A stretch of 64,000 nucleotides of DNA from Eledone cirrhosa (GCA_964016885.1 OZ024748.1:39680001-39744000), one strand, 5' to 3'; positions 18,831 through 42,713 are shown, counted from the first letter of the stretch. Notes: generated by a model from the sequence alone, not told the origin. Made by a program: numbers and translations.

Positions 18831-18867
18831 TTAGCAGTAGCAGTAGTAATGTTATTATTAAAATTGC

Positions 18868-19058
18868 CAGTGGATTGGCAGTATCGGTAGAGGGTCGGAC
18901 GCCCTGCTTTATAGCAAAGAGTTACGGCCCTTTATGTTCTGAGTTCAAATCCCGCCGAGGTTAACTTTGCCTTTCATCCTTACGGGGTCGATAAAATAAA
19001 GTACCAGTAATACACTGGGATAATTGCTGGCCTTGTGCCAAAAGTAGAAACAATTATT
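18868..19058 (+). mobile_element. Family-A SINE
   Basis: Same head and body as 16981-17170. Confidence 0.85.
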
Positions 19059-19394
19059 AAAATTGCCTTTTCTATATCCTACACTGTTACGTAAACCCTC
19101 CCTTTTCTATCGCCTCTCTCTCTTTCTTTCTGCCTCAATACATACATACAGACAGACACACACACGCTATCTATCTAGGACATAATTATTCCACGATCGA
19201 CAAGTAACAGTACACAATAGCGCACTTATGACAGGCCAGAGATTTGCGTGGGAGGTGATCTACCATAAATAACATCAATTCTACGAAACATCTGCCAAAC
19301 CAACAAGAAACAGCCATGGACTTCTCCGATCTGTAAGAAAATCTTCTTTTCAATATTTTTTTCGAAATTATATATATGTGTATATATATATATG

Positions 19395-19476
<82 letters not shown>

Positions 19477-19562
19477 TGTATATATATATATATAGCGGCG
19501 ATGAATTAGTTTTGCGAGGTTTTTTATATGAAATCGTGTGTCGAAACAAATATTGTTATACT

Positions 19563-20328
19563 TGGGGAGGGTCATATTTGTGTAACATTGCCAGAATTAA
19601 TAACAGAACACACTCACTGTTTGGTTGGTTTTCGCTTCTCGCTGTCTTTTATATCGGTAATCTAACTTACTCGGTCCTCAATGCTGCCATTGACTGACCG
19701 ACGGTCAAAAATAATACAGATACAATATAGACACAAACACATATATATAGTTTATCATAAATCTTTCGTTGCACATCTGCAACATCGTTAGTGGTGTTAT
19801 ATTTTCCTCCTGTTGTGTTGTATGTCTACGCCATTTTTATTCAGTCTGTCTATATATTTATTTATTTATTTGCTTGTTTGTTTATTTTATTTCGTCTTCT
19901 TTGCGCATGCGTTTGCGTGTGTGTATAGTGTTATGTTTGCTGTGTGATGGGTGACTAGTGTGTGTTTATGTGCTTGTTGTTATTGTGCTTGTGTATGTAT
20001 TTATTTATTTATTTATCTTATTTTATTAACTTATTTATACTTCTCTTAGGTCAGTATTGTTTGTTTGGGTGTTGTTGTTATTCCATTCATTCTTTCTGTT
20101 TAGCTTTGGTCTTCTAATTTCTATTTCACTGGCCTCTCTGATTTGCCTATCTGCTGGGTCATTTCTATGTTTAGATATTATTCTAATTTCTATGTTGTCT
20201 ATGTTACCGTCATGTTGTTGTCTAGCATGTTCGTATAGTACTGAGTACTATACGAACATGCTAGACATCAACATGACGGTAACATAGACAACATATTCTG
20301 GCAATATTACACAAATATGACCCTCCCC
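19563..20328. mobile_element. Non-autonomous element with ~33-bp inverted ends, flanked by TA-rich sequence
   Basis: ggggagggtcatatttgtgtaacattgccagaa ... ttctggcaatattacacaaatatgaccctcccc; inverted partial copy at ~60310-60900. Confidence 0.7.
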
Positions 20329-20388
<60 letters not shown>

Positions 20389-20403
20389 GTATATATGTAT
20401 ATA

Positions 20404-20599
<196 letters not shown>

Positions 20600-20607
20600 C
20601 ATACATA

Positions 20608-21246
20608 CGGGGGTTGGACAAAATAATGGAAACACCTAGCATCATAGAATCATAATTTTGAAATATCTATAAAACCGTCAAAAGCTTGTTTATTTTTATT
20701 GTTCTCGAGGTGGTCATTAAGTTTGGTAGTAATTTTGGTAGTAATTTTGGTAGTAATTTTGGTAGTAATTTGGCAGTAATTGTGGTAGTAATTTGGCAGT
20801 AATTTTGGGAGCTGTACTTTTGTGATCCTTTCTAACAATTCGCGTAAGAGTCCCACGGTATCTATCTGAAAGTTTTGGTTTTCTTCCGGAGTTTTGTTTC
20901 GACGAGGAGATTTTTCCCTCTTTCTCAAAGACTGTCATTACTTTCGAGACAGTACTTCTTGATACACCAAACATTTCGGCTGTTTTCGTTACGCTAGCGC
21001 CTGCCATACGAGCACCAACAATTTGACCTCTTTGAAAGTCCGATAGATCTGTCATTTTAATGAATTTTAATTACCTTTTTCTGATGATATCTGGAGAGAA
21101 ACAGCAATTTTAACAAATCATATTAAGCAACACTAATAATAAATATAAAAAAACATAAAAATAAACAATCTTTTGACGGTTTTATAGATATTTCAAAATT
21201 ATGATGCTATGATGCTAGGTGTTTCCATTATTTTGTCGAACCCCTG
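20608..21246 (-). mobile_element. Internally deleted Tc1 transposon
   Basis: ~80-bp TIRs (C(A/G)GGGGTT..), TA flanks, N-terminal transposase HTH (LSDFQRGQIVGARMAG..FGVSRSTVSKV..SGRKPKL) at 20800-21055, 12-bp internal repeat expansion. Confidence 0.9.
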
Positions 21247-21291
21247 TATATATATATATATATACATAATGTATAATATATATACATAATG

Positions 21292-21362
<71 letters not shown>

Positions 21363-21416
21363 ATATATATAGTGACGAAACATAAGTCAATTGCATGAAC
21401 TTATAATCCTTTATTT

Positions 21417-21472
21417 ACTGCTATGTATATTTCGATGATAGCCATTGAGTGGCTATGACCTCATCAGGCAGT
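21417..21472 (-). ncRNA. Type I hammerhead ribozyme (Penelope-type)
   Basis: Minus strand: ACTGC CTGATGA GGTCATAGCCA ctcaa TGGCTATCATC GAAAT atac ATA GCAGT. Confidence 0.78.
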
Positions 21473-21540
21473 TAGTAAGTTCTTAGATATGCCAGCTCTG
21501 TGCTTATGGTGTTGATTGTATCAGAGCCTTGGAGCACATC

Positions 21541-21586
<46 letters not shown>

Positions 21587-21639
21587 ATGTATAATATATA
21601 TATATAATGTATAGCTATACACTGTATATATAATCATAC

Positions 21640-21683
<44 letters not shown>

Positions 21684-21719
21684 CATATTCCAGCATAGCT
21701 ACGTCCGTTAACGATCTTA

Positions 21720-21832
21720 GTTCAAATCCCGACGAGGTTGACTTTGCCTTTCATCCTTACTGGGTCGATAAAATAAAGAAGCAGTAATGTACTGGGTAAT
21801 TGCTGGCCTTGTGCCAAAAAGATGAAACAATT
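21720..21832 (+). mobile_element. Family-A SINE, partial
   Basis: ttcaaatcccgacgaggttgactttgcctttcatcc body. Confidence 0.75.
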
Positions 21833-22128
21833 ATATATATATATAATATATAATATAGATATGTATATATATAATGTAGTGTGTGTTAGTGTGTATATAT
21901 GTATGTATATATATATACATGTGTGTGTGTGTAACAATTGTTCTCGGTATGGTGAACTAACTGTTGTGTTAAAGGGTGAAAGCAGCGATTCTTTGCTTAA
22001 ACTTTAATCTGTTATTTTAATAAATATTTCCTCTAGGGTTCTTATATATTTGATATATATTTATCCTTATCGAGCCCTCTTTGGATTTTAGTCTTCATAT
22101 TTATTATTATTATTACTATATATATATA

Positions 22129-22952
22129 CTAGCTGAGGTACCCGGTTATACCCGGGAGCGGGAGCATTCCCAGTTCCCATTAAAATGCCCAATGCCTCTC
22201 AGACTAAAAATGAAATACAAATATACGACAGATAATCAAAAGCGAAGACAAATTCATTTACGAAACAATAATACAAACAAATATTGTTGATTACATTGGT
22301 CAGGTGAAAATATGTTCGTCAGAGAAGTTGAGTGTTGCTATAAATAAACAAATAGAACCCCATTAGGGTGTCTCAATATTATTGACATTTGCTGAAATTT
22401 TGTGAATAAGTATCATATCTTGTCATTTACCTATGATTTAAATTTCATATAAATCGAAGGGAAAACATTTTCAGTGGGGGTTTTCAACGGGGTTTTGTGC
22501 CCCTAGGGACCCTTTGATTAAAATGAAATATACTTATCGAAGTACCCTGGGCAATGTAGTTTTAAAATATATATGGTTATGGGGGTCTATCTCCAAAAAG
22601 CATAGGAGGAGTTCGTGAAATCTTGTTCCATTTATTGGCCAAAATGTTCACTATAGGGGGTTTAACCCCCAAAAGGGTGTCTTAATATTATTGAAATTTG
22701 CTGAATTTTTGTGAATAGGCATCATATCTTGTCATTTACCTATTGTTTAAATTTCTTATAAATCGATGGGAAAAAATTAAGCGGGGGTTTTCAGCAGAGG
22801 TTTGAACACCCGGGGAACCCTTTGATTAAAATGAAATATACGTAAGAAATCAAATGGGCATGAGCCCCCACACACGTGTCAAGCTACATCAAGATCCGTT
22901 TGTTAGTTTTTGAGTTTTAGGTTCACAAACAAACAAACAGACAGACATTGCC

Positions 22953-22960
<8 letters not shown>
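22129..22960 (-). mobile_element. Non-autonomous Helitron
   Basis: Minus-strand 3' end hairpin cccgggtataaccggg then CTAG-T; internal ~190-bp duplication; 5' part also at 34262-34513. Confidence 0.7.
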
Positions 22961-22997
<37 letters not shown>

Positions 22998-23001
<4 letters not shown>

Positions 23002-23888
23002 ACACCTTTCTAGTGGGTCCGGGTATGATTTTACATTCATTTAAATTATTGATGTATTGATTTATTGATATTTTTTATCTGATTGTCCCGAATCTTCTAT
23101 TATCGATTTTTTATCGTATCGTTGATTTTAGACTTGTTCTATGTGTGACGGTATTTTAACGATAGTTATAGCTCTGATTCATCTGAATTATTGAGCCCTC
23201 TCCCGCTCATTTCGAATTTTGTTTATCGTGAACTCGTGCGCCGATTTTTCGATACTCGATCATTCTAATATTTTTAGCTCTGGACATAGCTATCCACCAG
23301 TTAATTTTATTGCTCATTTTTTGTCGATTCTATTGAGTGATGAATAGCTCCTGTTTTATTTTAACATGTCTATTGAGCACTTTTATTCGATATGTGTATT
23401 TCCACATTTCCTCGAATAGTTTTCGCGGATGTAGAGGTTATCTCCCTTGCCGGATTCCATGTGCGTATTTTGCTTGTAGTTAGCCTCTTATCCGCTAGGA
23501 CGAAGCTCGTTGAAGAAGTAAACTTCCAGTCCGCTTGCTCTAGAAGTCTTATATATTTATATGTGAGCTGATAGAGTACAGTCTAAGGATTTACAGAAAC
23601 CCAAGAAGCTAGATTTTACACCTTTCTAGTGGGTCCGGGTATGATTTTACATTCATTTAAATTATTGATGTATTGATTTATTGATATTTTTTATCTGATT
23701 GTCCCGAATCTTCTGTTATCGATTTTTTATCGTATGGTTGATTTTAGACTTGTTCTATGTGTGACGGTATTTTAACGATAGTTATAGCTCTGATTCATCT
23801 GAATTATTGAGCCCTCTGCCGCTCATTTCGAATTTTGTTTATCGTGAACTCGTGCGACGATTTTTCGATACTCGATCATTCTAATATA
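22998..23888. repeat. Direct repeat (~270 bp at 22998 and 23615) within a TA microsatellite; Penelope pseudo-LTR-like
   Basis: tttacacctttctagtgggtccgggtatg... occurs twice. Confidence 0.6.
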
Positions 23889-24409
23889 TATATATATATA
23901 TATATATACTATAAAGCTAACGGCCGTATGTATGTAACAAACTTTTCGCCAAACGGCTGGACCAAACAGCACCAAATTTGCACTATAGATGTAACTTTTT
24001 CCAAGTAAAAAAGTGAGGGTATTTTTGTCTACTGAATTTTGTTAAAAGATTAAAGACATTACTTAAATATTCACTTCTTTAAAATTTCAAATGTCAACAC
24101 TTCCTGTTATACGACATTCCTCACTTTTTTTCGTCGCACAACATTCCCCTCTTTTTCTTAGTCTGTCTTTTTAGATAGATATAGGGCTATAACGTAGCGT
24201 CTTTATAATATGTCTCTGTATGTCTGGCTGTCTGTATTAGATAACGTTTTTCGAAATATTTACTTCTGGGTTCACAGATTGATATTTTTTAGTTTCAGAA
24301 GTTAAGGGTGAAAGCCTTTGCTTAAACATTGTTATTTTAATATATATATTCGTGTACAGATATTTTGCATACACAAAAACAAAAACCTATTTATTTCACT
24401 AAAGCACAG

Positions 24410-24860
24410 ACGGCTTATCGTCATTGTTACTGTTCGAGGTTAGAGGCCCACAGTCTATCCAAGATCTGAGAACCATCAATAGCCAACAATGTTCCACTTA
24501 CCGTTTGGCTTGCCAGATGCGTGGTTTGTTACACGATGACACCTATTGGCACCTCACACTGCAAGAAGCAGCAACTGCTAAAGTCCCTTCTCAGCTGCGA
24601 AAACCTTTTGCTATTATGCTGCACAACTGTGATCTCGCCACCCCGAAAGTCTAGCTGAGGACATCCTCCACCGCACACGCAGACACAATCCGAGCGTAAG
24701 ATACGATGTCTTTTTCAATGAGGCGCTCATCTGTCTTGAAAACAGTGTCCTGGAGATTGGTGGTAGGCTTCTAAGTCACTACAGCTTACCTGCTCCTGAC
24801 AGGAGTGTCCTGAGGTCAATGTCTACAGAGCTTCTCCGCGAGACGAGCTACGAGATCAGT
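24410..24860 (+). pseudogene. Helitron RepHel fragment
   Basis: LLFEVRGPQSIQDLRTIN..TYRLACQMRGLLHDD.YW..TLQEA..LR..F..ML..C matches the Rep-helicase linker region; stops and frameshifts. Confidence 0.8.
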
Positions 24861-25214
24861 GCTTCTCCAGTGGTCAATTGTATGTAGGATGCTGAAAGAA
24901 AAAGAGAAAAATTTCAAATCTTTTATGTGGGATATGCAAATGAAGTAGAAGAGTAGACTGAAAATATCGTTATATTTAGACGCCAGGTACATTTAAATAA
25001 TTATTAGGATACTTTATAAAAGAAGATGAAGCAGAAGAAGGAAGAAAGATAGGCTCATATTATTATTAGGGTGCAAGTAGATTTAAAAATTTAAAATGTG
25101 TTGAAGTGGTAGAATACTAAAGCAAAAAGTGTTCAATATATAACCAAATCATGAGTTATAATATATATATAATGTATATAATTATATTTTAAGGAATTAA
25201 GGTTGTAGGTACAC

Positions 25215-25328
25215 TTTAGCTTATTATATTGCAACCAGTCAATTTAGCTTATTATATTGAAACCAGTCAATTTAGCTTATTATATGGAAACCAGTCAATT
25301 TAGCTTATTATATTGCAACCAGTCAATT
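25215..25328. repeat. 28-bp tandem repeat x4
   Basis: tttagcttattatattgcaaccagtcaa. Confidence 0.85.
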
Positions 25329-25599
25329 ATATACATATTTATATAAATAGATAAAAATATATACATGCTGTTATTAATTCAAATATAATTTAAGGGTTAC
25401 GAAGGATATGTGTTTACATTTTCAATATATAGTTAAGAAAAAAAAGTCCAAGATGGCACGGATGGGGTGGGCAGGAAGGAGACGTCCATACCATAATGCC
25501 AATGTAAGACAGTAGCTATTGTCATTTTATCGTGTCAGTTGATATTACGTTAAATATAATTCCGGTTTTATCTGTGATTTACTGATATAGCTTACGTCA

Positions 25600-25990
25600 A
25601 TTGTTTCTTCTTCGTCCAGTTATTTCTGAGAGGGTCGTGGGGGTCAGAGTCCTCCAACACTCCTTCCAGCAAGTCATGTCAGAAGCAACCGTTTCCAACT
25701 GATCCGGCTGGATCTCCCAAGCATGACCAGCCAAGCTCATGGATCTTAGCAAACCATCTTACTCAGGGTGGGTCGATCCCTGGGTTTCTTGTCGGTTTGT
25801 TTTGCCCGTAAAATCTGTCCGGTGATTCTTTCCTGAGACATTCTAACCACATGTCCATAGTATCAGAGCTGTGATCTCTCAATTCGGAGAAGTAGCGGCT
25901 CTACCTGGAGTAACTCTCTGATCTCAGAACTACGCACCCTATCGAGTAACATTACTCCAAAGACCCTTCAGAGGAATCCCATTTCGGCCG
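25600..25990 (-). mobile_element. RTE-clade LINE 3' fragment
   Basis: Homologous to 29280-29680 and 35400-35640; minus strand encodes AAEMGFL..RSSEIRE..IERSQL.YYGHVVRM. Confidence 0.75.
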
Positions 25991-26062
25991 CTTGTATTGT
26001 TTCTATTTACGAAATAACACAACTGAGGATTTTAATAGTGTCAAATTTTCGTTTCCTTTCAG

Positions 26063-27560
26063 TTCCGACTTTATCGAACCATTTAAAATACATATTGTAG
26101 AGAACATAAAGATCAATAACCGTAACGACAGATTAATTGCTCTCGAGAAAGCTGACTACAACATTTTTAAATTACAACCTGAAGATGTCATGATCGATTT
26201 CCTTACAGATGCTGGCACTAATGCTTTCAGTCTTGAACAAAACGCAAGAATATGGATGGGTGATGAAAGTTATGCCGGATCTACTAGTTATGAAACTTTG
26301 AAAGACACGGCAACATATATTTCTGGTTTTGAAAACATTCTGCCAGTTTTTTCTGAATGCATCAGCGAAGAGATTGTCGCTTCTTATTTCACAAAAGCTG
26401 GAGATAAGGTTATTGGGAATACTTTTACTTATTCACTTGAGAAGCATATAAAGGATCTTCATGCTGAAGCGATTTCTTTGTTAGATTGGTCAGATAATAA
26501 TTTTGCAGGAAATCTAGATGTTCAAGCACTCAAAAACTTATTGGCAGAAAATGATAAAAAATCAATTTCCTTTCTTATAATGAATGTACCAGCAAAAAGT
26601 AGTGGTGGCCAACCAGTTAGTATGTCAAACATGAAAGCAGTTTCTGATCTCTGTCGCGAACATTCGATTCCGATATACATCGAAAGTAGTATGTATGGTG
26701 AGAACTGTTGGCTCAATAAAATGTACGAAGAGGCTTACTTCAATAAATCGTTAGTTGAGATATCGCAAGAAATGTTTTCTTTTTTCGATGGCTGCATTAT
26801 TTCTGCTAAAAGAGATGGTAGAAGTGAGATTGGAAGTGTCATTTGTCTTCAAGACAAAGAAATGACTCGAAAATTGGGCACTGTTATTACTCTTAAAGCA
26901 GGTTTCATAACTTATGGTGGGATGGCTGGCCGAGATATGGAAATGGTAGCGGTTGGCATGCGAGGTGCTTTGGATGAACAACTGCAAGACTATCGACAAA
27001 AACAATTGGCATTTTTCAAAAGATCCCTGAAGGAATTTGGTGTTCCGATTGTGGAGCCAGTCGGTTGTAATACCATCTTCATTGATGCCGAAAATGCTTT
27101 TCCTAACTGTAAACACGCGTTTTATCCAGCCTGGTCTTTATCTTGTGCTGTTTATATCGTCGGGGGTATCCGATGCGCAGAGTTTGGTCAAGTTACTCGT
27201 CCAACAAGCAGCTTACCCACTAATCATTTTCTGAAAGACCGAGAATTACTAAAGCTTGAGATACCTCGTTTCATCTATACGACTTGTCACATTTTCTATG
27301 TTGCCTATGTTTTCGCTCAGCTTATTTCACATGAAATGCTTTCTGGAATGAAACTTATTGCCTGCTCCGAAGACCAAATAAAACTCGTGAAAATAAAAAT
27401 GAAACCAAATCATTCTCTGGAATATGACGATATCCAACTCCTTCCGGTACAAGACTGTGAACACATTCACTTCTTTAAAAACATATATAATCAAAGAGTT
27501 ATGAAAAGAAATTCAATCGCCGAGGCATCTTCTATATGGTCAGTCGACATTCCTTCTTAA
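26063..27560 (+). CDS. Tryptophanase/tyrosine phenol-lyase family protein, paralog A (lacks PLP lysine; keeps trans-acting Tyr); spliced exon, 5' exon not certain
   Basis: Uninterrupted ~500-codon frame: EPFKI, IDFLTDAGT, GDESYAGS, GGQPVSM, SAKRDG, GFITYGGMAGRD, GIRCAE, LEIPR. Acceptor ttttcgtttcctttcAG at 26061-26062. The TTG start at 25992 is not credible. Confidence 0.85.
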
Positions 27561-27754
27561 AAAGTGGACAAACACGTTAGATAATGTAATCGTAGACACA
27601 AAAAAGACGTGGTAGTCATGATTGGAACGTCCCTGATCATAGAATTGCTCTGTCAATGTTCACCTGAACTTAAACAACAGCAACAACAACACAGAGATTT
27701 TTTTTGTTGCACCCAAACAGGATTCTGTAAATTCTAGATTGTACATTCTTTTAT

Positions 27755-27897
27755 TCTTTTACTGGTTTCAGTCATTAGACTGTGGCCATGCTGGGGTACT
27801 GTTCTTTTACTGGTTTCAGTCATTAGACTGTGGCCATGCTGGAGCAGTGGTCTTTTACTGGATTCAGTGATTCTACTGTGGCCATGCTAGGGCACCA
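27755..27897. repeat. ~48-bp tandem repeat x3 (fragment of a dispersed repeat)
   Basis: ttcttttactggtttcagtcattagactgtggccatgctgg repeated. Confidence 0.75.
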
Positions 27898-28092
27898 ATT
27901 GATTGTTAGTTTGTTTTTTTTAATTGGTTTTATTCCCAACAATTAAACTATTGAACATGATTTTGAATAGAAAGTAGGGGAAAACATTGACAGTCTTGTC
28001 AAATATAGTTTTAATATTATGTTAACAAAAAAAGGAAATAAAATATCTTTGGAAACTTAAATATATTTCTTGTGATGTTCTTTTACAATTAT

Positions 28093-28375
28093 TTCACCAA
28101 TATATAATTAATATCAAACATTGTGATGTATGTTTCACCAATATATAATTAATAACAAACATTGTGATGTATGTTACACCAATATATAATTAATATCAAA
28201 CATTGTGATGTATGTTACACCAATATATAATTAATATCAAACATTGTGATGTATGTTTCACCAATATATAATTAATATCAAACATTGTGATGTATGTTTC
28301 ACCAATATATAATTAATATGAAACATTGTGATGTATGTTTCACCAATATATAATTAATATGAAACATTGTGATGT
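28093..28375. repeat. 41-bp minisatellite x~7
   Basis: caccaatatataattaatatcaaacattgtgatgtatgttt. Confidence 0.9.
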
Positions 28376-29279
28376 GGTTGTGATAATTCGGGGAAAGATG
28401 GTACAACGAATATTAGATAAACTAAGGTGAAAAGATACAACAAATCAGCATTTTAAACTTTCGTCTTATATTTCTTGATGTTTTGAGGTGAGAAACTTTT
28501 TTCAAAAGAAAGAAATGGAGTCTGGTCTTGTCAACGCCCAAAGAAATGTTGATAAACGATTTATTTACATCAACTTATTATTGATGGTGACATGCTTTTG
28601 TTTCACTTTAAAAAAATATTATAATAAGGTGACATACTAATATAAATATTATTTTAAAAATAAAAAACAAATCTTGAAACATCTTATGACTGTGGCAGTG
28701 GCAAGGTTTATAGAGTTAAGAAGCCTCACAACCATCTGATTTCCGGTTCCTTTAGACTACATGGCATCTTAAAGAAGTGTCTTTCTGCCATAGGTTCGAG
28801 TCAACAAAACGGACAGTTTGCCCTTTTCGGCTTGGCGGGCAGCAGGGCCTGGACTGGTGGTGGAATGCACCAGGTTGGCACTTGCAATTAATTGTAATAT
28901 AACTGATAGATGTTGTTTCAATTCTGTGCCATTAATTGTAGATCAACGACAACATTGTTGCAGTAGTTATTTCAATTATGTGCCATTAATAATCTGTGTT
29001 ACGAACACTACATAAATAGTCTACAGGTGTTACCTTGATTTCACCAGATGGAAATATCAAAATCAAAATTGATTATGTAATTGTTCCAAACAATATTCTC
29101 GAAATGGTGAAAAACTGCCATGTGTATATTTCTACAGATATTGGTCTAGAATATTTCAACTTAGAGACTGGAAAACACAAACGTTATTATCATAAATGTA
29201 CTGTGATTGTGTGAGGCTTAATTATTAAAGATTGTAAAATCCATTCCCTGTGAATTATATCCAAGAATTTTCTTTTTCT

Positions 29280-30080
29280 TCCTTCACTTATTCCTGAGAA
29301 GGTCGTGGGGGAAGAGTCTTGAAACACTCCTTCTAGCAGGTCCTGTCAGAAGCAACCATCTCGAACTGATTTGGCTGGATCCCCAAGCGATACCTGCCAA
29401 GCTTATGGATGTTATCCAACTATCTTGCTCAGGGTCTACTCCTGGGTCTCCTGCTGGTTGGTTTTGCCAATAAAATCTGTCCAGTATTTCCTTGGACATT
29501 CTAGCCATATAATATGTAATATCAGAGCTATGATTTCTCAATTCGGAGAAGTATCAGTTCTACCAGGAGTGATTCACAAGTCTCCAAGCTACACACACTA
29601 TCGAGTAATGATACTCCAAATACCCTTTTGGAGGAACCCCATTTTGGCCACTTGTATTTGCGATTGTATTCTTTCAGTCATTACACAAGATTCATGACCA
29701 TAGGTAAGGGTTGGCACGAAAATCGAATTGAAGATAGTGAGTTTGGTGTTTACACCTACCTCCCTTCTTCTGATTACCAAATGCCAAAGCTGTCACATTA
29801 CTGCAGCAGCTCCTGCAATTATTGCACTTAATTCGGCCTCCTGCCTTCCATCACTCGTGACCATGGCCCTGAGATACTTGAACTTCTCTACCAACTTCAG
29901 TAGAACTCCTTTCGCATGTAGAATGCACTGCGCAGGCTTCCTTTAGAAGACGAGTGTCTCAGTTTTCACAGCACTGAATTTCATTCCAGCCATGCATCAC
30001 TCTGCATCAAACCTATCAAGTGCAAGTCAGAGATCACCTTTTGTTGAGTTTGTAACACCATGTTGTCTGCAAATTCCAGC
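29280..30080 (-). mobile_element. RTE-clade LINE 3' fragment
   Basis: KLTIFNSIFVPTLTYGHES..IQVAKMGFL; FKYL motif; degenerate. Confidence 0.8.
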
Positions 30081-30163
30081 CACAAATTGCTGGCCATGTG
30101 CCTAAATTAGAAAACCTTATTCCTGCAAAAGGTCCTGTTAATCCTTAATTATTATTAAATATA

Positions 30164-30568
30164 ACATATATACAAACTGGAGCTGTGTCAGGGACCAGTC
30201 CGCAAACATATATACAAACTGGAGCTGTGTCAGGGACCAGCCTGCAAACATATATACAAACTGGAGCTGTGTCAGGGACCAGTCCACAAACATATATACA
30301 AACTGGAGCTGTGTCAGAGACCAGTCCGCAAACATATATACAAACTGGAGCTGTGTCAGGGACCAGTCCGCAAACATATATACAAACTGGAGCTGTGTCA
30401 GGGACCAGCCTGCAAACATATATACAAACTGGAGCTGTGTCAGGGACCAGTCCGCAAACATATATACAAACTGGAGCTGTGTCAGGGACCAGTCCGCAAA
30501 CATATATACAAACTGGAGCTGTGTAAGGGACCAGTCCGCAAAAATATATACAAACTGGAGCTGTGTCA
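30164..30568. repeat. 42-bp minisatellite x~10
   Basis: acatatatacaaactggagctgtgtcagggaccagtccgcaa. Confidence 0.95.
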
Positions 30569-30916
30569 GTGACAATGTCTGCAAACAATGAGTTGAACAT
30601 TTTAACACCAAGAAATATATGATAAATAAAAACTACAGTTAACAGATTTTTGTGTTTTGAATTACTAAAGTGACTCGTGTACAATGTAATTGGTATATAT
30701 ATATATATATATATACTCACTCTATATGTATGTGTTTTTATATAAATATGTAAATATTTGTGTATATATATATATAGTTGTTATATAGTAAGGTGTATTA
30801 TTGGTTGTGTCATACGGTCCAATAAACTTTTGTTAGCAATATTAAGTTCTCCACGCTTTTGTATATCTCCAATTCCATTTAAGGGAACAGCTAGATGATG
30901 TAAAACGGAGTATTTG

Positions 30917-32515
30917 TATCAAAATAAAGATCCGAAAGCATGGTATAAATTTCCAATCATTTTAATCACAACACGTTTCAATAAGGGATAGATCGATCGT
31001 GTGGTCATGATCGATTATCACTGATTTCATCATTCTTAACTGAGCGTGTAATACGTCTATTTACTAACTGAGAGAACTCTATGGTTAGGGTATTCTAAAC
31101 CTTCCTCAGGATTTTTGGAAAGTAACCTACCACTAACTCCCCCCTTTTTACCTTAGCCATAGAGTTCTCTCAATTAGCAAAAAATAGACAATCACATACT
31201 CAGGTAGTAGACAGCTAAGATCGTTTGCGCACTTACACACTGTACTCGGTATGTTTCCACAGAGTTCTCACAGTTGAGTGCATATTTACCATTACTTTAG
31301 AATACCTAGTTAGTAAATAGTTAGAACAATTACACTCGCAGTTAAGACCGATTACGCGCATTCACCATTACTTTAGAATACCCTAACCATAGAGTTCTCT
31401 CAGTTAGTAAATAGACGTATTACACACTCAGTTAAGAACGTTACGCTCTTTATACATAATTCTACACAGTACCCGGTTTCTTTAGACACAGAGTTGCCAC
31501 AGTTATGACCAGTCATGATCTTGTCGATTGAATACTACACTAGGTTTTGGTCTGTGATCCTCTAACCAAGGAGTGCTCACAGTTTGCTGAATGGACAATA
31601 CTACTTACACGCCATCAATGGACTTACACACATCCCCGGGGTTTTGTTATTTTATTTTGTGTTGGGTAACACACCTCCACCACTCAAACACTTATCTTAA
31701 AGGCCCGAGGGCCCATTTGACGGGAAAACGCACACACTGACACCTTAACTCAAATACCCAACCCTACATGGAGCCCCTTGTTGGCCTACATGGCAGGTGC
31801 TTGCACGCACAGACTCGGGGACCCAGATTCTCAACGGGACAACGGCACATATAGAGTTCGATACGAGCTGACTACTTGCTCTACACATGGATGTGTATAT
31901 ACCAAAACATACACTATTTAGACGATACAGATGTTACAATTCAATCGATACACGTATAGCAGAACGTTGAAGGGAATTTACTTGCGTGTGTATAGTGTTG
32001 TGGTTGACCCAATTTTTTTCTAATTTACATCGTGAAAATTGAGATTTGACCAATATAACGTTTGTTGTTTTGTAACCTAACTTTTGGTGCATACTGTGTT
32101 GCTGTGTATATTTTTTTTTCTCTGACCTCGCGTCGGTGTGTGTGAGTGTGTGTGCACTCAATAACACTAATTGTGACGGACCAAAATTCTACAGATCTGG
32201 TGCTGAGATTAGACCTGTCCAGCGTCTTTTACAGCTATTGAGAGATAGAGACTTGATAGATTTATGACCCTGACTGAAGACAATAGCAGTTGTCGTGTTT
32301 TGGCTGCTGATTATTCATATGGGGAACAAAACTCCAGTGAGTGAACATCGTTAGTTTTTCCTCCCTCATATCAAAGATTTGAAGACATTTCATTATTCAC
32401 CTGATGAGATCAGTGATAATCGATCATGACCACACGATCGATCCCTTATTGAAAAATGTCTCGTGATTAAAATGATTGGAAATGTATACCATGCCTTCGG
32501 ATCTTTATTTTGATA
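30917..32515. mobile_element. 1.6-kb non-coding element with ~115-bp inverted ends and nested internal inverted repeats
   Basis: tatcaaaataaagatccgaa..tcatca (30917-31032) is inverted at 32402-32515; internal IR 31035-31098 / 31372-31438. Confidence 0.75.
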
Positions 32516-32562
32516 TATATATATAAAACTGAATTTACATTTTTTTTTCCAGTCTCCAAGCA

Positions 32563-33942
32563 ATGGAACCTTACAGGATTAAGGTATTTTATCCAGTCAA
32601 TTTAATCCCCAAGTCTGACCGTATTGCATGTCTAAAAGCTGCCAACTACAACCCCTTTCTACTTAAATCGAAAGACATATTTATAGATTTGCTAACAGAT
32701 TCTGGTACAGGAAGTCAAAGCAGTGCCCAGTGGTCGGCTATGACTAAAGCCGGCTATTCAACTATTAATTCCGAATACGTTAAGGAATTTGTACGTACAA
32801 TTCAACACATTACCAATTTCAAACATGTATTTCCAGTTCATCAAGGTCGAGGAGCCGAAGGTTTGTTGGCAAAACTCCTACTGAATAAAGAGAGTGTTGT
32901 ACTGAGTAATTCTCTCTTTGACACAACACGAGCACACGTTGAGTCATCTGGTGCAATTGGAATAGATTTGGCAACAAAGTCTTCAAAATTCTTAGGTGAT
33001 GCCGATGTGGAAAAATTTGAAGAAACACTGGATGAATATGGTTCTAGAGTTCATCTTGTAATAATAACCTGCACCAATAATGTGGTAGCCGGAGCTCCTG
33101 TGAGCATGCAAAATATAGAAATCATAACAAAATTATGTCGAAACAAGAATATCCCAGTTATAATGGACGCATGCCGTTTTGTTGAAAATGCTTATTTTAT
33201 CAAGACCTTAGACGAAAAATATTCTAAACACACAATCTTAGATATTGCCAGCGAAATGTTTTCTTATTTTGATGGTGCAACTATGTCTTTAAAGAAAGAT
33301 GGTATGAGCAATGAAGGTGGGTTTATAGCTTTCAACAACGACAAATGGGCCACCAAAATATTTGACATAATCGAATATAAAAGTGGTTATTCAACTTACG
33401 GGGGAATAACTGGATCAAATCTTGTAGCATGTACTGTCGGAATTTCTGAGGCTATGAACGAAAATTACCTCCGATCAAGAATCTATCAGGCTAAATTACT
33501 GGCTGATTTCTTGGAAGATAATAATATTCCCGTATTTAAACCAGTAGGGGCCCATGCCGTCTACGTGAAAGCAAACAAAGTCTTGCCACACCTTGATTTC
33601 TTGAAGTATCCAGCATGGTCCCTTAATTGTGCCGTATATATCGAAGGTGGTATTCGATGTGCAGAAATTGGCAATATAATGTTTGGTGAAAATTCAGATG
33701 GAACAAAACAAATTCATCCCTTTGAATATGTGCGTTTGGCTTTACCCAGAAGAACCTATACGGTCAACCATCTGCATTTTGTGGCCAAAACTTTTGGTTT
33801 TGTTGCCAAAAAAGCCCATTTAATCCACGGAATGGAAATTGTCAAATCTTCGCATCTCCTAAGACATTTCACAATTTGGATGAGACCATTAAATGAATAC
33901 CACCTTGAAAAGAATAATAATCAGAAAAAAATAAACTGTTGA
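32563..33942 (+). CDS. tnaA: Tryptophanase-like PLP-dependent beta-eliminating lyase, paralog B (PLP Lys intact; catalytic Tyr replaced)
   Basis: 459-aa intact ORF: EPYRI, IDLLTDSGTG, HQGRGAE, FDTT, TNN, DACRFVENAYFI, MSLKKDG, AEIG, VRLALPRRTYT, LRHFT. FDTT/EIG/RHF are tryptophanase-type rather than TPL-type. Acceptor ttttttttccAG at 32551-32552. Confidence 0.92.
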   Translation: MEPYRIKVFYPVNLIPKSDRIACLKAANYNPFLLKSKDIFIDLLTDSGTGSQSSAQWSAMTKAGYSTINSEYVKEFVRTIQHITNFKHVFPVHQGRGAEGLLAKLLLNKESVVLSNSLFDTTRAHVESSGAIGIDLATKSSKFLGDADVEKFEETLDEYGSRVHLVIITCTNNVVAGAPVSMQNIEIITKLCRNKNIPVIMDACRFVENAYFIKTLDEKYSKHTILDIASEMFSYFDGATMSLKKDGMSNEGGFIAFNNDKWATKIFDIIEYKSGYSTYGGITGSNLVACTVGISEAMNENYLRSRIYQAKLLADFLEDNNIPVFKPVGAHAVYVKANKVLPHLDFLKYPAWSLNCAVYIEGGIRCAEIGNIMFGENSDGTKQIHPFEYVRLALPRRTYTVNHLHFVAKTFGFVAKKAHLIHGMEIVKSSHLLRHFTIWMRPLNEYHLEKNNNQKKINC

Positions 33943-34261
33943 AGTTTGCCATAAATTACAATGTCAGTTATCTCTTGTGTACAGAAGAAGTTCATTAGAA
34001 GTATATATCACACTGGCCAAATTACCCACACCTTGCTGCGTTTCACACTTTTTTTTTTTTAAAGAAAATGATGAATGATTTTAAATCAGCGATATAATTT
34101 ATGGAGAAAAACTCTGCATTTCAATATTACTCAATGTAAAATGTAATGCATGAAAAATTGGAAAACATTATTTTTTGTTATATATCAAATCAAAATTACA
34201 TTATTAAATCTGATTCTTATTTTGTTTCTTGTAAATAATTTTTTTCAAAATATCAATTCAA

Positions 34262-34513
34262 AACTTTTGTGAATAGGGCATCATATCTTGTCATTTACAT
34301 ATGGTTTAAATTTCATATAAATCGAAAGGAAAAAATTTTCAGCAGGGATTTGTGCCTCCGGGGAACCCTTTGATTAAAATGAAATATACTTATCCAAGTA
34401 ACCTGGGAAATGTAGTTTCAGAATATATATGGTTATGGGGATCTAGCTCCAAAACTATAGGAGGAGTTCATGAACAAACAAACAGACAGGAACGACAACT
34501 TTATATATATAGA
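34262..34513 (-). mobile_element. Helitron 5' fragment (same family as 22129-22960)
   Basis: Shared catcatatcttgtcattta..ccctttgattaaaatgaaatatac; minus strand begins TCTATATAT. Confidence 0.65.
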
Positions 34514-34644
34514 TTACTACCTACGTTTAAATGGGTTTTATATAAATGAATTTAAATGGCTTTTAATGGGTACATGTGTGTGCTTATATTAGTGAAGAAG
34601 TGCTTGCTTAAGAACTATGACATATGACTTCATAACACATATTA

Positions 34645-34835
34645 TTGTGGTGGATTGGCAGTATTGGGAGAGGGTCGGATGCCATGCTTTGACGTATAGA
34701 GTTACGGCCCTTGCCATTCTGAGTTCAAATCCCGCCGAGGTTAACTTTGCCTTTCATCCTTACGGGGTCGATAAAATAAAGTACCAGTAATGCACTGGAT
34801 ATTTGCTGACCGTGTGCCTAACTTAGAAACAATTA
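34645..34835 (+). mobile_element. Family-A SINE
   Basis: Same head and body as other copies. Confidence 0.85.
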
Positions 34836-35399
34836 TAAAGAGAAATTCGTATTTTCTTGCATGTTTACATGCCTACATATTAAATATATGTATAGTTCTA
34901 CACACAGTCTCAGCTACACACTCTGTATTTATACAGATATAATTTTATCATTCACTATGGCTGTTAGCATACTTCTTAATATATATATATTAAATAAGTA
35001 CCAATACAAACGCTAATTAAATGCAAATTAATTTCATTGGTACAAGAGATTTCAACACATTCTGCTTTTCAACTCGGCAAAAATACAGAGAGTTTGGCTA
35101 ATATAGCAACATAGCTACACACACTTGCTAACCCTAACCCCTGCCGAAATTGAAACTAGCTGAGTTTGCTTCACAGGTTACTAAATATCACGACTATGTA
35201 TTCTACAATTGCACACACAATATACTGCATGTATACTTGCACCTTTTTCTGTTTTCATTGCTGCACCTTAACAACGAAGTAAATCATTTTATAAATAAAA
35301 ATATTTAAATTAGCAGTGTCTTGTTTATTTGTTAATTCTTATCCACGTGATTTGGAAAAATCATCTTACCCAGGGTAATATCACTTCACAGTACACATC

Positions 35400-35960
35400 A
35401 GGAGTGGTTTATTTGACCAATACGGTCAAACTTCTCTGGACTCGCAGACATACTTGGCATTGCTTCACCAACATAGTAAAACCAACCAGCAGGAGTCCCA
35501 GGGGTAGACCCCAAGCAGGATGGATGGATAACATCCATGAGCTTGGCTGGTCTTGCTTGGGGATCGAGCCAGATCAGTTGGAAACGGTTGCTTCTGACAG
35601 AACCTGCTGGAAGGAGTGTCTGAGGATTCTGCAACAGCATTTGGAAGATTATACTGAAGACTTGGGCATGTGGAAGAGCTGCATGAAGCTACTTAATGAT
35701 GAGCAGAAAGAGCGACATGTGCAGGTGCGTAAGCACATCCTCAAGCATTTTGAAATCAAACCAGACATTTTCCTTTTCCCCAAGCTGAAGAGGGTCATCA
35801 GAGGAACCTGAGGTAGAAGCCATGAAGAGGGCTATATTAGCAGAGCTATGGAGAATTCTGGGTGAATCCATCCAAGAGTGCAGGGAGAAGAAAGATGGGA
35901 AATTGTGTTTGACCCAAGGGGGATTATTCTGAAAAGGAAAACTTCTAGTTCGGATTTAAA
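35400..35960 (+). mobile_element. RTE 3' fragment followed by mariner-like remnant
   Basis: PRGRPQAGWMDNI (RTE); LLNDEQKERHVQ..PD.FLFPKLK (mariner). Confidence 0.6.
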
Positions 35961-36008
35961 ATATTTTATTTTGCAACTTCTGTCCTGTTTCTTTTCATAT
36001 ATATATAT

Positions 36009-36340
36009 ACATGGCTTAGTGGTTAGAGCATTTGCCTTGCAATCGAAAGGTTTGAGTTCAATTCTCAGACCGGGTGATGTGTTGTTTCCTTGAGCAAGAC
36101 ACTTTATTTCACATTGCTCCAGTTTACTCAGCTGTAGAAATGAGATGATAGGGACTGGGGTCCCTATCATTCCACTGCAAAGTGGTCATGGAGGTGCCAC
36201 GGCAAAAAAGCACCCAGCACTCACTGTAAATGAGGTTGGTGTTAGGAAGGGCATCCAGCTGTAGAAATCAAGCCAGAATCAGTTCCCGTCCTACCCTTGC
36301 AAGCAGGGAAAAGTGGACGTAAAATGATGATGATGATGAT
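36009..36340 (+). mobile_element. tRNA-derived SINE (family B)
   Basis: A box tggcttagtgg, B box gagttcaattc, ccttgagcaagacac body, aggaagggcatccagc, (ATG)n tail; near-identical copy at 45320-45660. Confidence 0.85.
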
Positions 36341-37099
36341 ATATATGGATAATAGGATAAATTTGGTACAACCAATAAATTATAAAGGCAACAAATATTT
36401 TCTTGTTTTAATATTGCAGTTTATACATATCTTAAGAAGCAGTATAAGAAAAGCTTACATTTCATTTTCAAACTTAAGTAAAAAATAAAATATATATTTA
36501 TTTTCAATTTTTAAAATGCGAGCAAAAACATAAAATCGATTTGAATATTCATCACACATACATATATATACATGTATATTATTTCGAAAAAAAAGGGGGT
36601 GGGGTAAAGTTTTATACAAAAAAATGATGACCAGTTCGAATATTTGAGAGAAAACTCAAGTATATTCGAACTGCTCAGATATTAAAAAAATTTCTTTTAT
36701 TAATATTCAATATTTAACATCTAATATTTGATAAAATTGTTTTACCAATCGAAACCAGTTATATTTAATGCAACAATTATAAAATTATTCATTCTGTCAG
36801 ATTAAAGAAAAAATAATCTTTTAATATTCCCTGGACATTGGCAATTTCAACCCCCTACCAACAGTACTGCTGGTTCACTCTGGGTCACAGCGTCTGAGAC
36901 AAGTCAGAGCGTAGTGTCCAAATAATTATTTTAAATTATTCTATGAAAAATAAAAATTAATTACAGGTATCTAAATATCACAATTTGTTTTGTTGGATGA
37001 TCTACCAACTTTGCCATCAACCAGTCATTTCTATCAAATAATTTCCAATAATATTTGTGAATATGAAAAGGTAAAGAAAGATCGATATATGTGCGTGTA

Positions 37100-38671
37100 T
37101 ATATAACGTCTGAATAGCTCAGGCTGTCATACCTGACAGTCCTCAGTGAAATATGTATAACGTCTGAAGAGCTCAGGCTGTCATAACTGATAGTCCTCAG
37201 TGAAATATGTATAACGTCTGAAGAGCTCAGGCTGTCATAACTGATAGTCCTCAGAGAAATGTGTATAACGTCTGAATAGCTCAGGCTGTCATACCTGACA
37301 GTCCTCAGAGAAATGTGTATAACGTCTGAAGAGCTCAGGCTGTCATAACTGATAGTCCTCAGTGAAATGTGTATAACGTCTGAAGAGCTCAGGCTGTCAT
37401 ACCTGATAGTCCTCAGTGAAATATGTATAACGTCTGAAGAGCTCAGGCTGTCATACCTGATAGTCCTCAGAGAAATGTGTATAACGTCTGAAGAGCTCAG
37501 GCTGTCATACCTGACAGTCCTCAGTGAAATGTGTATAACGTCTGAAGAGCTCAGGCTGTCATACCTGACAGTCCTCAGTGAAATGTGTATAACGTCTGAA
37601 GAGCTCAGGCTGTCATACCTGATAGTCCTCAGAGAAATGTGTATAACGTCTGAAGAGCTCAGGCTGTCATAACTGATAGTCCTCAGTGAAATATGTATAA
37701 CGTCTGAAGAGCTCAGGCTGTCATACCTGATAGTCCTCAGAGAAATGTGTATAACGTCTGAAGAGCTCAGGCTGTCATAACTGATAGTCCTCAGTGAAAT
37801 ATGTATAACGTCTGAAGAGCTCAGGCTGTCATAACTGATAGTCCTCAGTGAAATATGTATAGCGTCTGAAGAGCTCAGGCTGTCATACCTGATAGTCCTC
37901 AGAGAAATGTGTATAACGTCTGAAGAGCTCAGGCTGTCATAACTGATAGTCCTCAGTGAAATATGTATAACGTCTGAAGAGCTCAGGCTGTCACAACTGA
38001 TAGTCCTCAGTGAAATATGTATAACGTCTGAAGAGCTCAGGCTGTCATAACTGATAGTCCTCAGTGAAATATGTATAACGTCTGAAGAGCTCAGGCTGTC
38101 ATAACTGATAGTCCTCAGTGAAATATGTATAGCGTCTGAAGAGCTCAGGCTGTCATACCTGACAGTCCTCAGTGAAATATGTATAACGTCTGAAGAGCTC
38201 AGGCTGTCATAACTGATAGTCCTCAGAGAAATGTGTATAACGTCTGAAGAGCTCAGGCTGTCATAACTGATAGTCCTCAGTGAAATATGTATAACGTCTG
38301 AAGAGCTCAGGCTGTCATAACTGATAGTCCTCAGTGAAATATGTATAACGTCTGAAGAGCTCAGGCTGTCATAACTGATAGTCCTCGGTGAAATGTGTAT
38401 AACGTCTGAAGAGCTCAGGCTGTCATAACTGATAGTCCTCAGAGAAATATGGATAACTTCTGAAGAGCTCAGGCTGTCATAACTGATAGTCCTCAGTGAA
38501 ATATATATAACGTCTGAAGAGCTCAGGCTGTCATAACTGATAGTCCTCAGTGAAATGTGTATAACGTCTGAAGAGCTCAGGCTGTCATAACTGATAGTCC
38601 TCAGTGAAATATGTATAACGTCTGAAGAGCTCAGGCTGTCATAACTGATAGTCCTCGGTGAAATGTGTATA
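37100..38671 (+). repeat. 54-bp satellite (~29 copies), each unit a minimal hammerhead ribozyme motif
   Basis: Unit ACGT CTGAAGA GCTCAGGCTGTCA taac TGATAGTCCTCAGT GAAAT atgt ATA; period 54 (CTG at 37110, 37164, ...). Confidence 0.85.
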
Positions 38672-38911
38672 GCAGAGTTTTAAATAAATCTGAATTGACT
38701 GGTAATGGCCTCCAACCTTTTAATAGTGTGTGTGTGTGTGTATACATATGAGATTGTTTAGCCTTATATACCTTTCCACAATAATATATATATATATATA
38801 AGTAAAAGTGGTATTTAATTTGTTGGAAGTCCGACAAACATAGATGTTTATAACTGATTTAGAGCACTCAACAAATTACTGGAGTAAATATTCAATGATA
38901 TTAAATAAATG

Positions 38912-39562
38912 GAAACTATATTTATAAAAGTATATTTATAAACTATAGTTTTATAAATATAGTTTTTTAAATATAGTTTTATAAATATAGTTTATAAATA
39001 TAGTTTTATAAACTATATTTATAAAACTATATTTATAAAACTATATTTATAAAACTATATTTATAAAACTATTTTATAAGACTATTTTATAAAACTATTT
39101 TATAAAACTATATTTATAAATCTATATTTATAAAACTATATTTATAAAACTATATTTATAAAACTATATTTATAAAACTATTTTATAAAACTATTTTATA
39201 AAATTATATTTATAAAACTATATTTATAAAACTATATTTATAAAACTATATTTATAAAACTATATTTATAAAACTATATTTATAAAACTATTTTATACAA
39301 CTATTTTATAAAACTATATTTATAAAACTATATTTATAAAACTATATTTATAAAACTATATTTATAAAACTATTTTATAAAACGATATTTATAAAACTAT
39401 ATTTATAAAATTATATTTATAAAACCATATTTATAAAATTATATTTATAAAACTATTTTATAAAACTATATTTATAAAACTATATTTATAAAACTATATT
39501 TATAAAACTATATTTATAAAACCATATTTATAAAACTATATTTATAAAACTATATTTATAAA
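38912..39562. repeat. AT-rich ~14-bp satellite (aaactatatttata) with an inverted block
   Basis: Direct reading; lies inside inverted repeat 38873-38928 / 39705-39747. Confidence 0.9.
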
Positions 39563-39638
39563 ATTCCCTATCCAGTGAATTTCCAACCGATAAGGTATGC
39601 TTTTCGTGGGTATGTCTCTATTTATAAAACAAACTTTG

Positions 39639-39703
39639 TATTTTATCTGATGAAAGCATACCAATGTAGTCTTGGTTACCCTTGAAATATATATAATAAA
39701 ATA
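39639..39703 (+). ncRNA. Type I hammerhead ribozyme (Penelope-type)
   Basis: TATTTTAT CTGATGA AAG..CCAA..TTGG..CTT GAAAT atat ATA ATAAAATA; 8-bp stem I. Confidence 0.78.
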
Positions 39704-39764
39704 AATATGGTTTTATAAATATAGTTTCCATTTATTTGATATCATTGTATATATATATATATAT

Positions 39765-41676: not shown

Positions 41677-41830
41677 TTCCAGCTCTGTGCACCTAACCTC
41701 TGCATGAAACCAGCCACCTAGCTGCTTTCTACTGCATATTGCACATTGAGCACATGCCTTTACGCTTTGGCTTCTAACTAATTCACCAATCTCTCCTTTA
41801 TCTCTCTCTTTAAGATTGGTTACTCTTGAA

Positions 41831-41868
<38 letters not shown>

Positions 41869-42564
41869 TCGTTCACAGAATACATAAAAAAAATGTTTAA
41901 TATTTCATATTTATTAAGATTGTTATACTAATCGAAACTGATTATAATAAATGTAACAATTATAAAATTATTCCTTCCGTCGGATTAAAGAAAAAAGTAT
42001 TCGGCGGCGTCGTCGTCGTCATCGTCATCTATATATATATATATAATAGAAAAAATGAGGAAGTTTCATTTACATATGAAAATATATATAAATAGGGATA
42101 GAGAGAGGTATGTAGATAGATAGAGAAACACATTATATATATGTATATATATATATATATACTAAGACAAAATACAGGTCTGTACCAGCAAGACATGGTC
42201 TCCTGACCCAAGTTATCTCATAACGCAACAAGCCATCTAACATCCAACACATGCATGTGTGGAAAATGGACCTTAAATGATGATGATTGTAATGATGACA
42301 CACACAGACACACAATTTAACATCTGTCTTATGAAAACATGTTAAAGGGTTAGTATGCAATCACTTTGATGTCTTTGAAATGCACAAAACAGGATTATAT
42401 AATTTTGTTATTAAAATAATGTTATTTCTCTGAGGAACTGGAATCATATGATTCCAGTTCCTCTAAGAGAAATAACAACCCAACCAGGAACTGGGCATAT
42501 CGGAGTATTGACAGAGTTAAACACCTCAACAACATGTGTACCCGTCTCTACCACACCAATTCGG

Positions 42565-42619
42565 ACTGCCTGAAGAGGTCACAGCCAAAGATGGCTGTCA
42601 CCAAAATATATATAGCAGT
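42565..42619 (+). ncRNA. Hammerhead motif with G12A core mutation (probably inactive), inside a small inverted-repeat element 42338-42814
   Basis: ACTGC CTGAAGA GGTCACAGCCA aaga TGGCTGTCACC AAAAT atat ATA GCAGT; same family as 21417-21472. Confidence 0.65.

Positions 42620-42672: not shown

Positions 42673-42713
<41 letters not shown>

Follow-up and report, generated by a model that had tools for sequence, protein, structure and literature searches.

We analyzed two tryptophanase-like coding regions, A and B, in a 64,000-nt stretch of Eledone cirrhosa DNA (GCA_964016885.1 OZ024748.1:39680001-39744000), hereafter the window, in which positions are counted from the first letter. On its contig (C8, 60.6 Mb long, in a genome of 3.0 Gb), the window spans 39.68-39.74 Mb. 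A and B are almost certainly the alternative last exons of one octopod gene with a shared first exon, and their active-site residues have been lost reciprocally: A keeps the tyrosine that a tryptophanase subunit lends to its neighbor and lacks the lysine that binds pyridoxal 5'-phosphate (PLP), whereas B keeps the lysine and lacks the tyrosine. Overall, the locus is probably one gene for two half-enzymes that work as an obligate A/B heteromer.

In the mechanism that we propose, one promoter would give rise to a pre-mRNA whose 17-nt coding first exon is joined to either the proximal acceptor (A) or the distal acceptor (B). With the A choice, the transcript would end at A's own poly(A) site, and with the B choice A would be skipped. 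The resulting isoforms would have six residues in common and otherwise be paralogues, which are 30% identical as proteins. The tryptophanase site lies between subunits, one binding PLP and substrate and the other lending the tyrosine that protonates the leaving indole. With A and B expressed in the same cell and binding each other, as we infer, B would supply the PLP- and substrate-binding set and A the lent tyrosine set, and an A/B dimer, probably within an A2B2 tetramer, would hold one complete site in place of the two of the ancestral homodimer.

The splice from exon 1 to B is captured in a 1537-nt contig from sequencing run X4, which contains 29 nt of exon 1 (19304-19332) followed by 32553-34060. 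The 29-nt loose 5' end of this contig matches a single place within the window, and the contig is a precise splice across 13 kb that skips A. We also scored every ATG+17 nt+GT site of the window as a possible phase-2 micro-exon encoding the Octopus leader residues, and 19316-19332 ranked first with a score of 27, the runner-up reaching 12. Genome-wide, a degenerate first-exon pattern gave nine matches, all near A/B copies within the C8 array described below, and none in the control. An initial annotation of the window had placed both coding regions behind acceptors of the same position and phase, and this holds: the AGs at 26061-26062 and 32551-32552 are both phase 2 and stand 13 nt 5' of the Glu-Pro codons that begin at 26076 and 32566. 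Six YAG sites with at least 12 pyrimidines in the preceding 14 nt occur in 19333-32552, the A and B acceptors among them, and the two acceptors are of equal phase because they share a donor. That they are functional, as the same annotation proposed, is borne out for B, where the contig starts to match at 32553. Its suggested micro-exon for A at 25496 is present as letters but is one of 6 ATG..GTRAG sites in 14000-26062 and was rejected as a chance site, the exon in use being 19316-19332. With one donor, two acceptors of the same phase and a splice to the distal exon, the locus has the make-up of an alternative-last-exon gene.

Annotated proteins of other octopods carry the same leader. In RefSeq, XP_014791032.1 and XP_014791033.1 of Octopus bimaculoides are isoform X1 (A-type) and isoform X2 (B-type) of one name and start with six identical residues, and XP_036366181.1 and XP_029647098.2 of O. 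sinensis are isoforms X1 and X2 with the same six-residue leader; names, leader and contigs of the same size suggest that each pair comes from one locus. Similar six-residue leaders are found on the B-type proteins P0003 and P0241. For A, the leader on A-type proteins of two Octopus species would fit a putative exon 1 to A splice in E. cirrhosa, and an AATAAA at 28037 is a candidate poly(A) signal after A.

Using an alignment of 7 A-type and 7 B-type sequences with 11 from other animals, the paired halves of 8 fused bacterial proteins and a random sample of 120 bacterial homologues, we found that the two exons have lost complementary parts of the active site. Residue numbers of the Proteus vulgaris enzyme were carried over by way of tyrosine phenol-lyase (TPL), an equivalence that we presume to hold. 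The catalytic tyrosine is present in 7/7 A-type and 0/7 B-type sequences, and the PLP lysine in 7/7 B-type and 0/7 A-type sequences, which have Arg in its place (7/7); both residues are present in 120/120 bacterial and 10/11 other animal sequences. Among 140 columns that are at least 95% invariant in the 120 bacteria, both exons keep 59, A alone has lost 33, B alone 13 and both 12, and 23 are mixed. The losses confined to A include the equivalents of Phe132, Asp133, Asn194, Asp223, Lys266, Arg414 and Phe459, all of which B keeps. B has lost six positions in or around the GDESYAGS loop (Asp67, Glu68, Tyr70, Ala71, Gly72 and Ser75). Its second lent tyrosine is Phe in 3/7 sequences, and the corresponding Tyr284 of A is kept in 7/7. 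Between the two deep clades of A, the lent GDESYAGS loop is the best-conserved 8-mer (0.94, mean 0.46), while in B the same loop is below average (0.42, mean 0.55).

These positions have assigned roles in the bacterial enzymes. According to excerpts of PMC11301627, Tyr72*, which protonates indole, belongs to the partner chain in the catalytic dimer, and the PLP/ligand site is lined by Thr50, Ser52, Phe132, Asp133, Asn194, Asp223, Ser263, Lys266, Arg414, His458 and Phe459. In E. coli, Tyr74 and Tyr307 bind the neighbor's PLP, and the activity of Y74F is negligible (PMC2770544, in excerpts). B has the equivalents of the indole-binding set Asp133, His458 and Phe459 on its PLP-binding chain (Asp123 in 7/7, His438 in 7/7 and Phe439 in 6/7), and the Asp123 and His438 pair suggests tryptophan rather than tyrosine as the substrate. 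B is without Thr124 and Arg381, which we take to be the specificity residues of TPL, and carries Asp123 and Ile372. Among the best 25 candidates scored genome-wide, no complete tryptophanase was found elsewhere, all 23 B matches falling inside the array. The sole other PF01212 match among these candidates (L088, C20 27.77-27.78 Mb) is a multi-exon low-specificity threonine aldolase, and it was ruled out as a third partner on that account.

Profile searches place A and B in the family without assigning either to a known enzyme. Both exceed the PRK13238 cut-off of 285 bits (A 397.6, B 494.5), and both fall far below those of the equivalogs TIGR02617 and NF053783 (A 279/328 and B 349/390 bits against 826/750) and below that of TIGR02618 for TPL (320 and 382 bits against 721). 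Like tryptophanase TnaA (EC 4.1.99.1; P. vulgaris 1AX4, E. coli 2C44), A and B jointly hold the named catalytic residues of this family. However, the known enzymes are homotetramers with a full site on every chain (PMC12980246, in excerpts), whereas A and B are each incomplete, neither having both the tyrosine and the PLP lysine that such a homotetramer requires of every chain. TPL (EC 4.1.99.2; Citrobacter freundii 2EZ1) gives the best or near-best Protein Data Bank scores for A and B, and some database names for A are TPL-like, but B has the tryptophanase Asp/His pair in place of Thr124/Arg381 and lies under the TIGR02618 cut-off. Among named proteins, those of Octopus bimaculoides (isoform X2, 82% to B; isoform X1, 75% to A) and Argonauta are the nearest, and orthologues occur in three Octopus species and Argonauta. 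The two-isoform structure is already present in automatic annotation, as "tryptophanase isoform X1/X2" of O. bimaculoides and O. sinensis, although each isoform is treated there as a whole enzyme.

A close parallel for the predicted complex is eukaryotic serine palmitoyltransferase (SPT), in which a bacterial homodimer corresponds to an LCB1/LCB2 (SPT1/SPT2) heterodimer with presumably one site, one chain without the PLP lysine, and both chains needed (PMC6148460, in excerpts). As in such half-site PLP heterodimers, one of the paralogues here lacks the PLP lysine and the other has it, and the lysine-less A conserves the residues lent to the partner site (GDESYAGS, and Tyr284 in 7/7). SPT differs in family, reaction and its two genes, whereas A and B come from one gene by last-exon choice and their complex is predicted. 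A second parallel is found in fused split-site bacterial TPL-like lyases (P0126, P0139, P0356-P0359, P0362, P0375), whose N half has the DExYAG loop and YGG without the lysine and whose C half has the lysine without the tyrosine, a split seen in 8/8 pairs. In contrast to A and B, these are single polypeptides of TPL type (Thr, Arg) and stand phylogenetically apart, and by the trees the two splits are convergent. Proteins of 840-930 aa with two lyase domains comprise P0126, P0139, P0356-P0362, P0375, P0387, P0389 and P0395; in the tree, P0360, P0361 and P0389 stand apart from the others, possibly as a second fusion family. As for the gene structure, calcitonin/CGRP is an alternative-last-exon gene, and the protocadherins and UGT1A are variable-exon clusters. 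All of these join a shared exon to one of several mutually exclusive exons, as A and B do, but in this locus only six codons are shared, a whole enzyme subunit is encoded by each alternative exon, and the products are predicted partners.

The same one-gene structure could serve another chemistry. B may be a homotetrameric beta-lyase with changed chemistry, acting on cysteine, S-substituted cysteines or serine derivatives, whose leaving groups can depart without a tyrosine acid. A would then be a pseudoenzyme, either regulating or diluting B or binding a ligand of its own; we rate this as unlikely, though worth keeping in view. B keeps all the PLP and carboxylate contacts checked, tryptophanase accepts S-ethyl-cysteine, and an Asp133 mutant is active on good leaving groups (excerpts of PMC11301627). 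Several observations speak against a heteromer that is obligate. B has an in-frame ATG of its own and could work alone on substrates with good leaving groups. The abalone paralogue P0365, the exception among the 11 other animal sequences, is without the tyrosine, so the loss of this residue need not imply a heteromer. The dead site of A has fixed substitutes (Arg, Glu, Met and Lys in 7/7), and their conservation could mean a function of its own. However, a beta-lyase B with a pseudoenzyme A leaves unexplained why the best-conserved stretch of A is a loop that works only in a partner's site, and why B has retained the indole-specific Asp/His pair. On balance, we consider an obligate A/B heteromer quite likely from these residue patterns, and tryptophan as its substrate an even call.

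The window corresponds to approximately one unit of a young segmental duplication. Our array counts combine genome searches with the sequence of the window and of a further 580 kb, which does not take in the 400 kb separating the first copy from the cluster. C8 39.12-40.13 Mb contains 10 full copies of A and 9 of B, along with first exons in forward (6 complete, 2 truncated) and inverted (3) orientation and two inverted halves of A, indicating that the locus has been amplified about tenfold, in approximately ten tandem copies of 55-60 kb. Six of the nine B copies are full length and three are broken (frameshifts in L008 and L009, a stop in L006), while 8/10 A copies have 497-498 codons and L019 and L014 carry frameshifts. 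Exon 1, full A and full B occur together in four units, including that of the window, and a fifth differs by a changed A tail only. Synonymous and non-synonymous differences (4/8 between window and L007 B, 4/7 between window and L010 A) are too few to show selection. Contig depth over B was 69-81 in runs X1-X3, which are from one sample and a possible source of the assembly, and was not used as copy number.

That the array is an assembly artefact and the window copy a false duplicate is quite improbable. The copies are 98.9-100% identical over exons, B of L004 is identical to that of the window, and the sole transcript seen matches an outlying copy, L007, all of which an artefact would accommodate. 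Against it stand nested shared variants, private frameshifts, inversions and differing insertions, and ten versions exceed two haplotypes; lesions and insertions peculiar to single copies speak for duplications that are real and young. Argonauta, too, has more than one B model beside A: in Argonauta hians, the consecutive loci P0005, P0121 and P0244 are B, B+A (probably a mis-joined model) and B. These adjacent models indicate that local exon duplication is not unique to E. cirrhosa. In two E. cirrhosa units, an inverted exon 1 and half of A lie behind B, from which antisense or hairpin RNA could arise. Each unit has approximately one or two degenerate telomere-like (TAACCC)n blocks, which are found in both orientations (window 1-1000 and 54000-55000, and L050, L060, L067, L070-L073, L079-L081, L085 and L043); they may have been carried along by the duplication or have served it as recombination sites.

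Two independent genes with their own promoters and 5' introns, the exon 1 to B join being minor read-through, are very improbable. B's own ATG at 32563 would suit them. So would two points that count against our account of the gene structure: the exon 1 to A splice is putative in E. cirrhosa, and the distant A-type protein P0407 has a leader of equal length with other letters, so that the shared exon is established for Octopus only. The X4 contig calls for caution as well. The record of the run does not describe it as RNA, and we take it as such from the exact splice; the run search listed no RNA data set for the sequence, which says nothing about expression. The contig differs from the window at 13 positions, one for one those of copy L007 (C8:39.13 Mb). 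The transcript is thus evidence of expression for L007 or a similar allele and not for the window copy; RNA editing was ruled out as the cause, since all 13 differences match that genomic copy. Nevertheless, the sole B contig spanning the exon in X4 begins with exon 1, the stretch from A to B has no further exon 1 copy, and the same leader is on both isoforms in two Octopus species, each of which two separate genes would leave unaccounted for.

We examined the ancestry of A and B using FastTree or quick IQ-TREE trees (120 rows for FastTree, 45 of these for the smaller tree, and 29 of those 45 for approximately unbiased (AU) tests). In the 120-row FastTree, A and B, with 7 rows each, are sisters with support 88. 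They lie within a clade of 21 rows (support 96) in which the members that carry names come from chiton, abalone and a bivalve. Quick IQ-TREE retains the mollusc clade with supports of 98 (Gordionus inside) and 96. The sister relation of A and B is less firm, with support 71 in one run and no resolution in the other, which counts against our reading. Homologues also occur in corals, Priapulus and Gordionus. An all-animal clade has support 97 in one quick IQ-TREE and is mixed with two bacterial rows in another, as it is in the 120-row FastTree, and the AU test does not reject one animal clade (p 0.25). A grouping of A and B with three near bacterial rows, chosen after seeing the tree, is rejected (p 0.0004). 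From the mollusc clade and this rejection, the gene is at least as old as molluscs. The phylogenetic check called for by the initial annotation does not support a recent horizontal acquisition; an older transfer into early animals may have taken place.

A recent transfer from bacteria to cephalopods, of a plain tnaA or of a fused split-site lyase later cut into two exons, is largely refuted: intronless bodies, match lists dominated by bacteria (with the chiton protein as query, nearly all bacterial or unnamed), a shared split and order in the fused lyases (lent half first), Gordionus among molluscs in one tree and two bacteria among animals in others would fit it, but A and B group with chiton, abalone and bivalve proteins (support 96-98) and are not nested among bacteria, AU tests on the 29-row quick tree also reject placing A beside the fused N half (p 0.007) and B beside the fused C halves (p 5e-55), and these C halves are TPL-type (Thr, Arg) whereas B is tryptophanase-type.

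Within the mollusc clade, A-type P0124 and P0407 and B-type P0002, P0003 and P0241 are sister groups to octopod A and B with the same split. By tree position they are probably from other cephalopods, in which case the A/B split would be old. The common ancestor proposed for A and B stands, probably as one duplicated exon; two genes each with a 5' intron do not, since the first exon is shared. The shared derived sequence is largely upheld, as K.G..TYGG occurs in 9/14 cephalopod-type and YPAWSL.CAVYI.GGIR in 5/14, both with 0/11 in other animal and 0/120 in bacterial sequences. The added RCAE is partly chance: its Ala differs between copy L007 and window B, and both Octopus B proteins read RCGE. 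In Haliotis, P0371, P0365, P0391 and cluster members are divergent tryptophanase-like paralogues that keep the lysine and are changed at the Asp133, Arg414 or RHF positions, possibly a separate diversification of substrate or partner.

The coding bodies belong to host DNA, as the 60.6 Mb contig and the octopod orthologues attest, and contamination is excluded. They are single open frames, uninterrupted 3' of the acceptors for 498 codons in A and 462 in B, with a GC content of 37% (32-34% at third codon positions) that resembles adjacent and host DNA. High-copy host repeats flank B, and remnants of long interspersed elements (LINEs) lie in the window. This agrees with the intronless, AT-rich bodies among host repeats that had been described. 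Only repeat-derived long open reading frames adjoin A and B, no profile search aimed at tnaC or tnaB having been made. The earliest Met within exon A is codon 43. A is approximately 23 codons longer than its Octopus orthologues (window 27490-27560), apparently through loss of a stop codon, and the other full copies have this tail too. Coordinates are collected in Table 1.

Table 1 Features of the A/B locus in the window
Feature	Position	Strand	Basis and remarks
TATA-like box, speculative promoter element	19264..19271	+	seen in sequence, 45-52 nt 5' of the ATG
Shared first exon, transcribed part seen	19304..19332	+	window scan, X4 contig end, genome-wide pattern
First-exon coding part	19316-19332	+	MDFSD + 2 nt (MDFSD-L); phase-2 donor GT 19333-19334, sequence GTAAGA
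Proximal acceptor of exon A, pyrimidine tract and AG	26046..26062	+	AG kept in 10/10 full A copies
Alternative last exon A	26063..27560	+	tryptophanase-like; lent (trans) residues kept, PLP lysine absent
A Tyr70 codon (equivalent of TPL Tyr71, P. vulgaris Tyr72*), GDESYAGS loop	26271..26273	+	alignment to solved TPL
A Arg250 codon in place of Schiff-base lysine (TPL Lys257)	26811..26813	+	TPL alignment; Arg in 7/7 A-type
Candidate poly(A) signal of isoform A, AATAAA	28037..28042	+	sequence; ATTAAA at 27942 too
Distal acceptor of exon B	32539..32552	+	spliced contig match starts at 32553; AG kept in 9/9 B copies
Alternative last exon B, coding part	32553..33942	+	tryptophanase-like; X4 contig reaches 34060; PLP-/substrate-binding residues kept, lent tyrosine absent
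B Thr70 codon in place of catalytic tyrosine	32761..32763	+	TPL alignment; Tyr in 0/7 B-type
B Lys248 codon, Schiff-base lysine	33295..33297	+	TPL alignment; Lys in 7/7 B-type
Approximately one unit of young segmental duplication	1547..64000	+	collinear pieces 96-100% identical; unit 55-60 kb; array C8 39.1-40.15 Mb

The remainder of the window is rich in repeats. Minisatellites lie at 28092-28375, 30163-30587, 36961-38679 and 55864-58173, with units of 41 and 42 bp between A and B and of 27 bp and its multiples further on; their length variation may explain part of the A-B spacing differences among copies. Broken minus-strand LINEs at 4118-13317, 18162-18725 and 61372-64000, with endonuclease, reverse transcriptase and zf-RVT, have been duplicated with the unit. 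A broken remnant resembling a long terminal repeat retrotransposon lies on the minus strand at 47179-50629, its integrase-core match being below the Pfam cut-off.

In the excerpts of each source consulted, PMC8537960 lists an octopus tnaA, leaves its origin unresolved and does not mention introns, PMC4962025 gives no KEGG tryptophanase match in O. bimaculoides, and Octopus is absent from the main text of PMC12980246. In the literature searched, outside of which lie supplements and subscription journals, we found no description of A/B isoforms or of a split site. The isoform structure is known from automatic annotation, while the reciprocal half-sites and the array appear to be undescribed. The initial annotation had missed the incomplete active sites of both proteins and the roughly tenfold amplification of the locus. 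Within the same literature, a design of one tiny first exon with either of two half-site subunits appears to be unreported for tryptophanase.

Taken at its fullest, our reading is that cephalopods would make indole with an obligate half-of-sites heteromeric tryptophanase, that in octopods a six-codon exon and the choice of splice and poly(A) site would set the subunit ratio and act as an on switch, that fused bacterial lyases came to the same split on their own, and that the locus was recently amplified about tenfold in E. cirrhosa. We put this whole forward tentatively, at slightly below even chances. The locus offers a testable case of how reciprocal loss can make an obligate heteromer out of a homomeric enzyme while a single promoter keeps hold of both partners, each an alternative last exon. 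On this reading, either octopus isoform expressed alone is predicted to fail on tryptophan, so that the current database names would mislead. For animal tryptophanase, the question moves away from recent transfer or contamination and towards an old gene of molluscs, possibly of all animals, and the possibility is raised that octopuses may make indole themselves.

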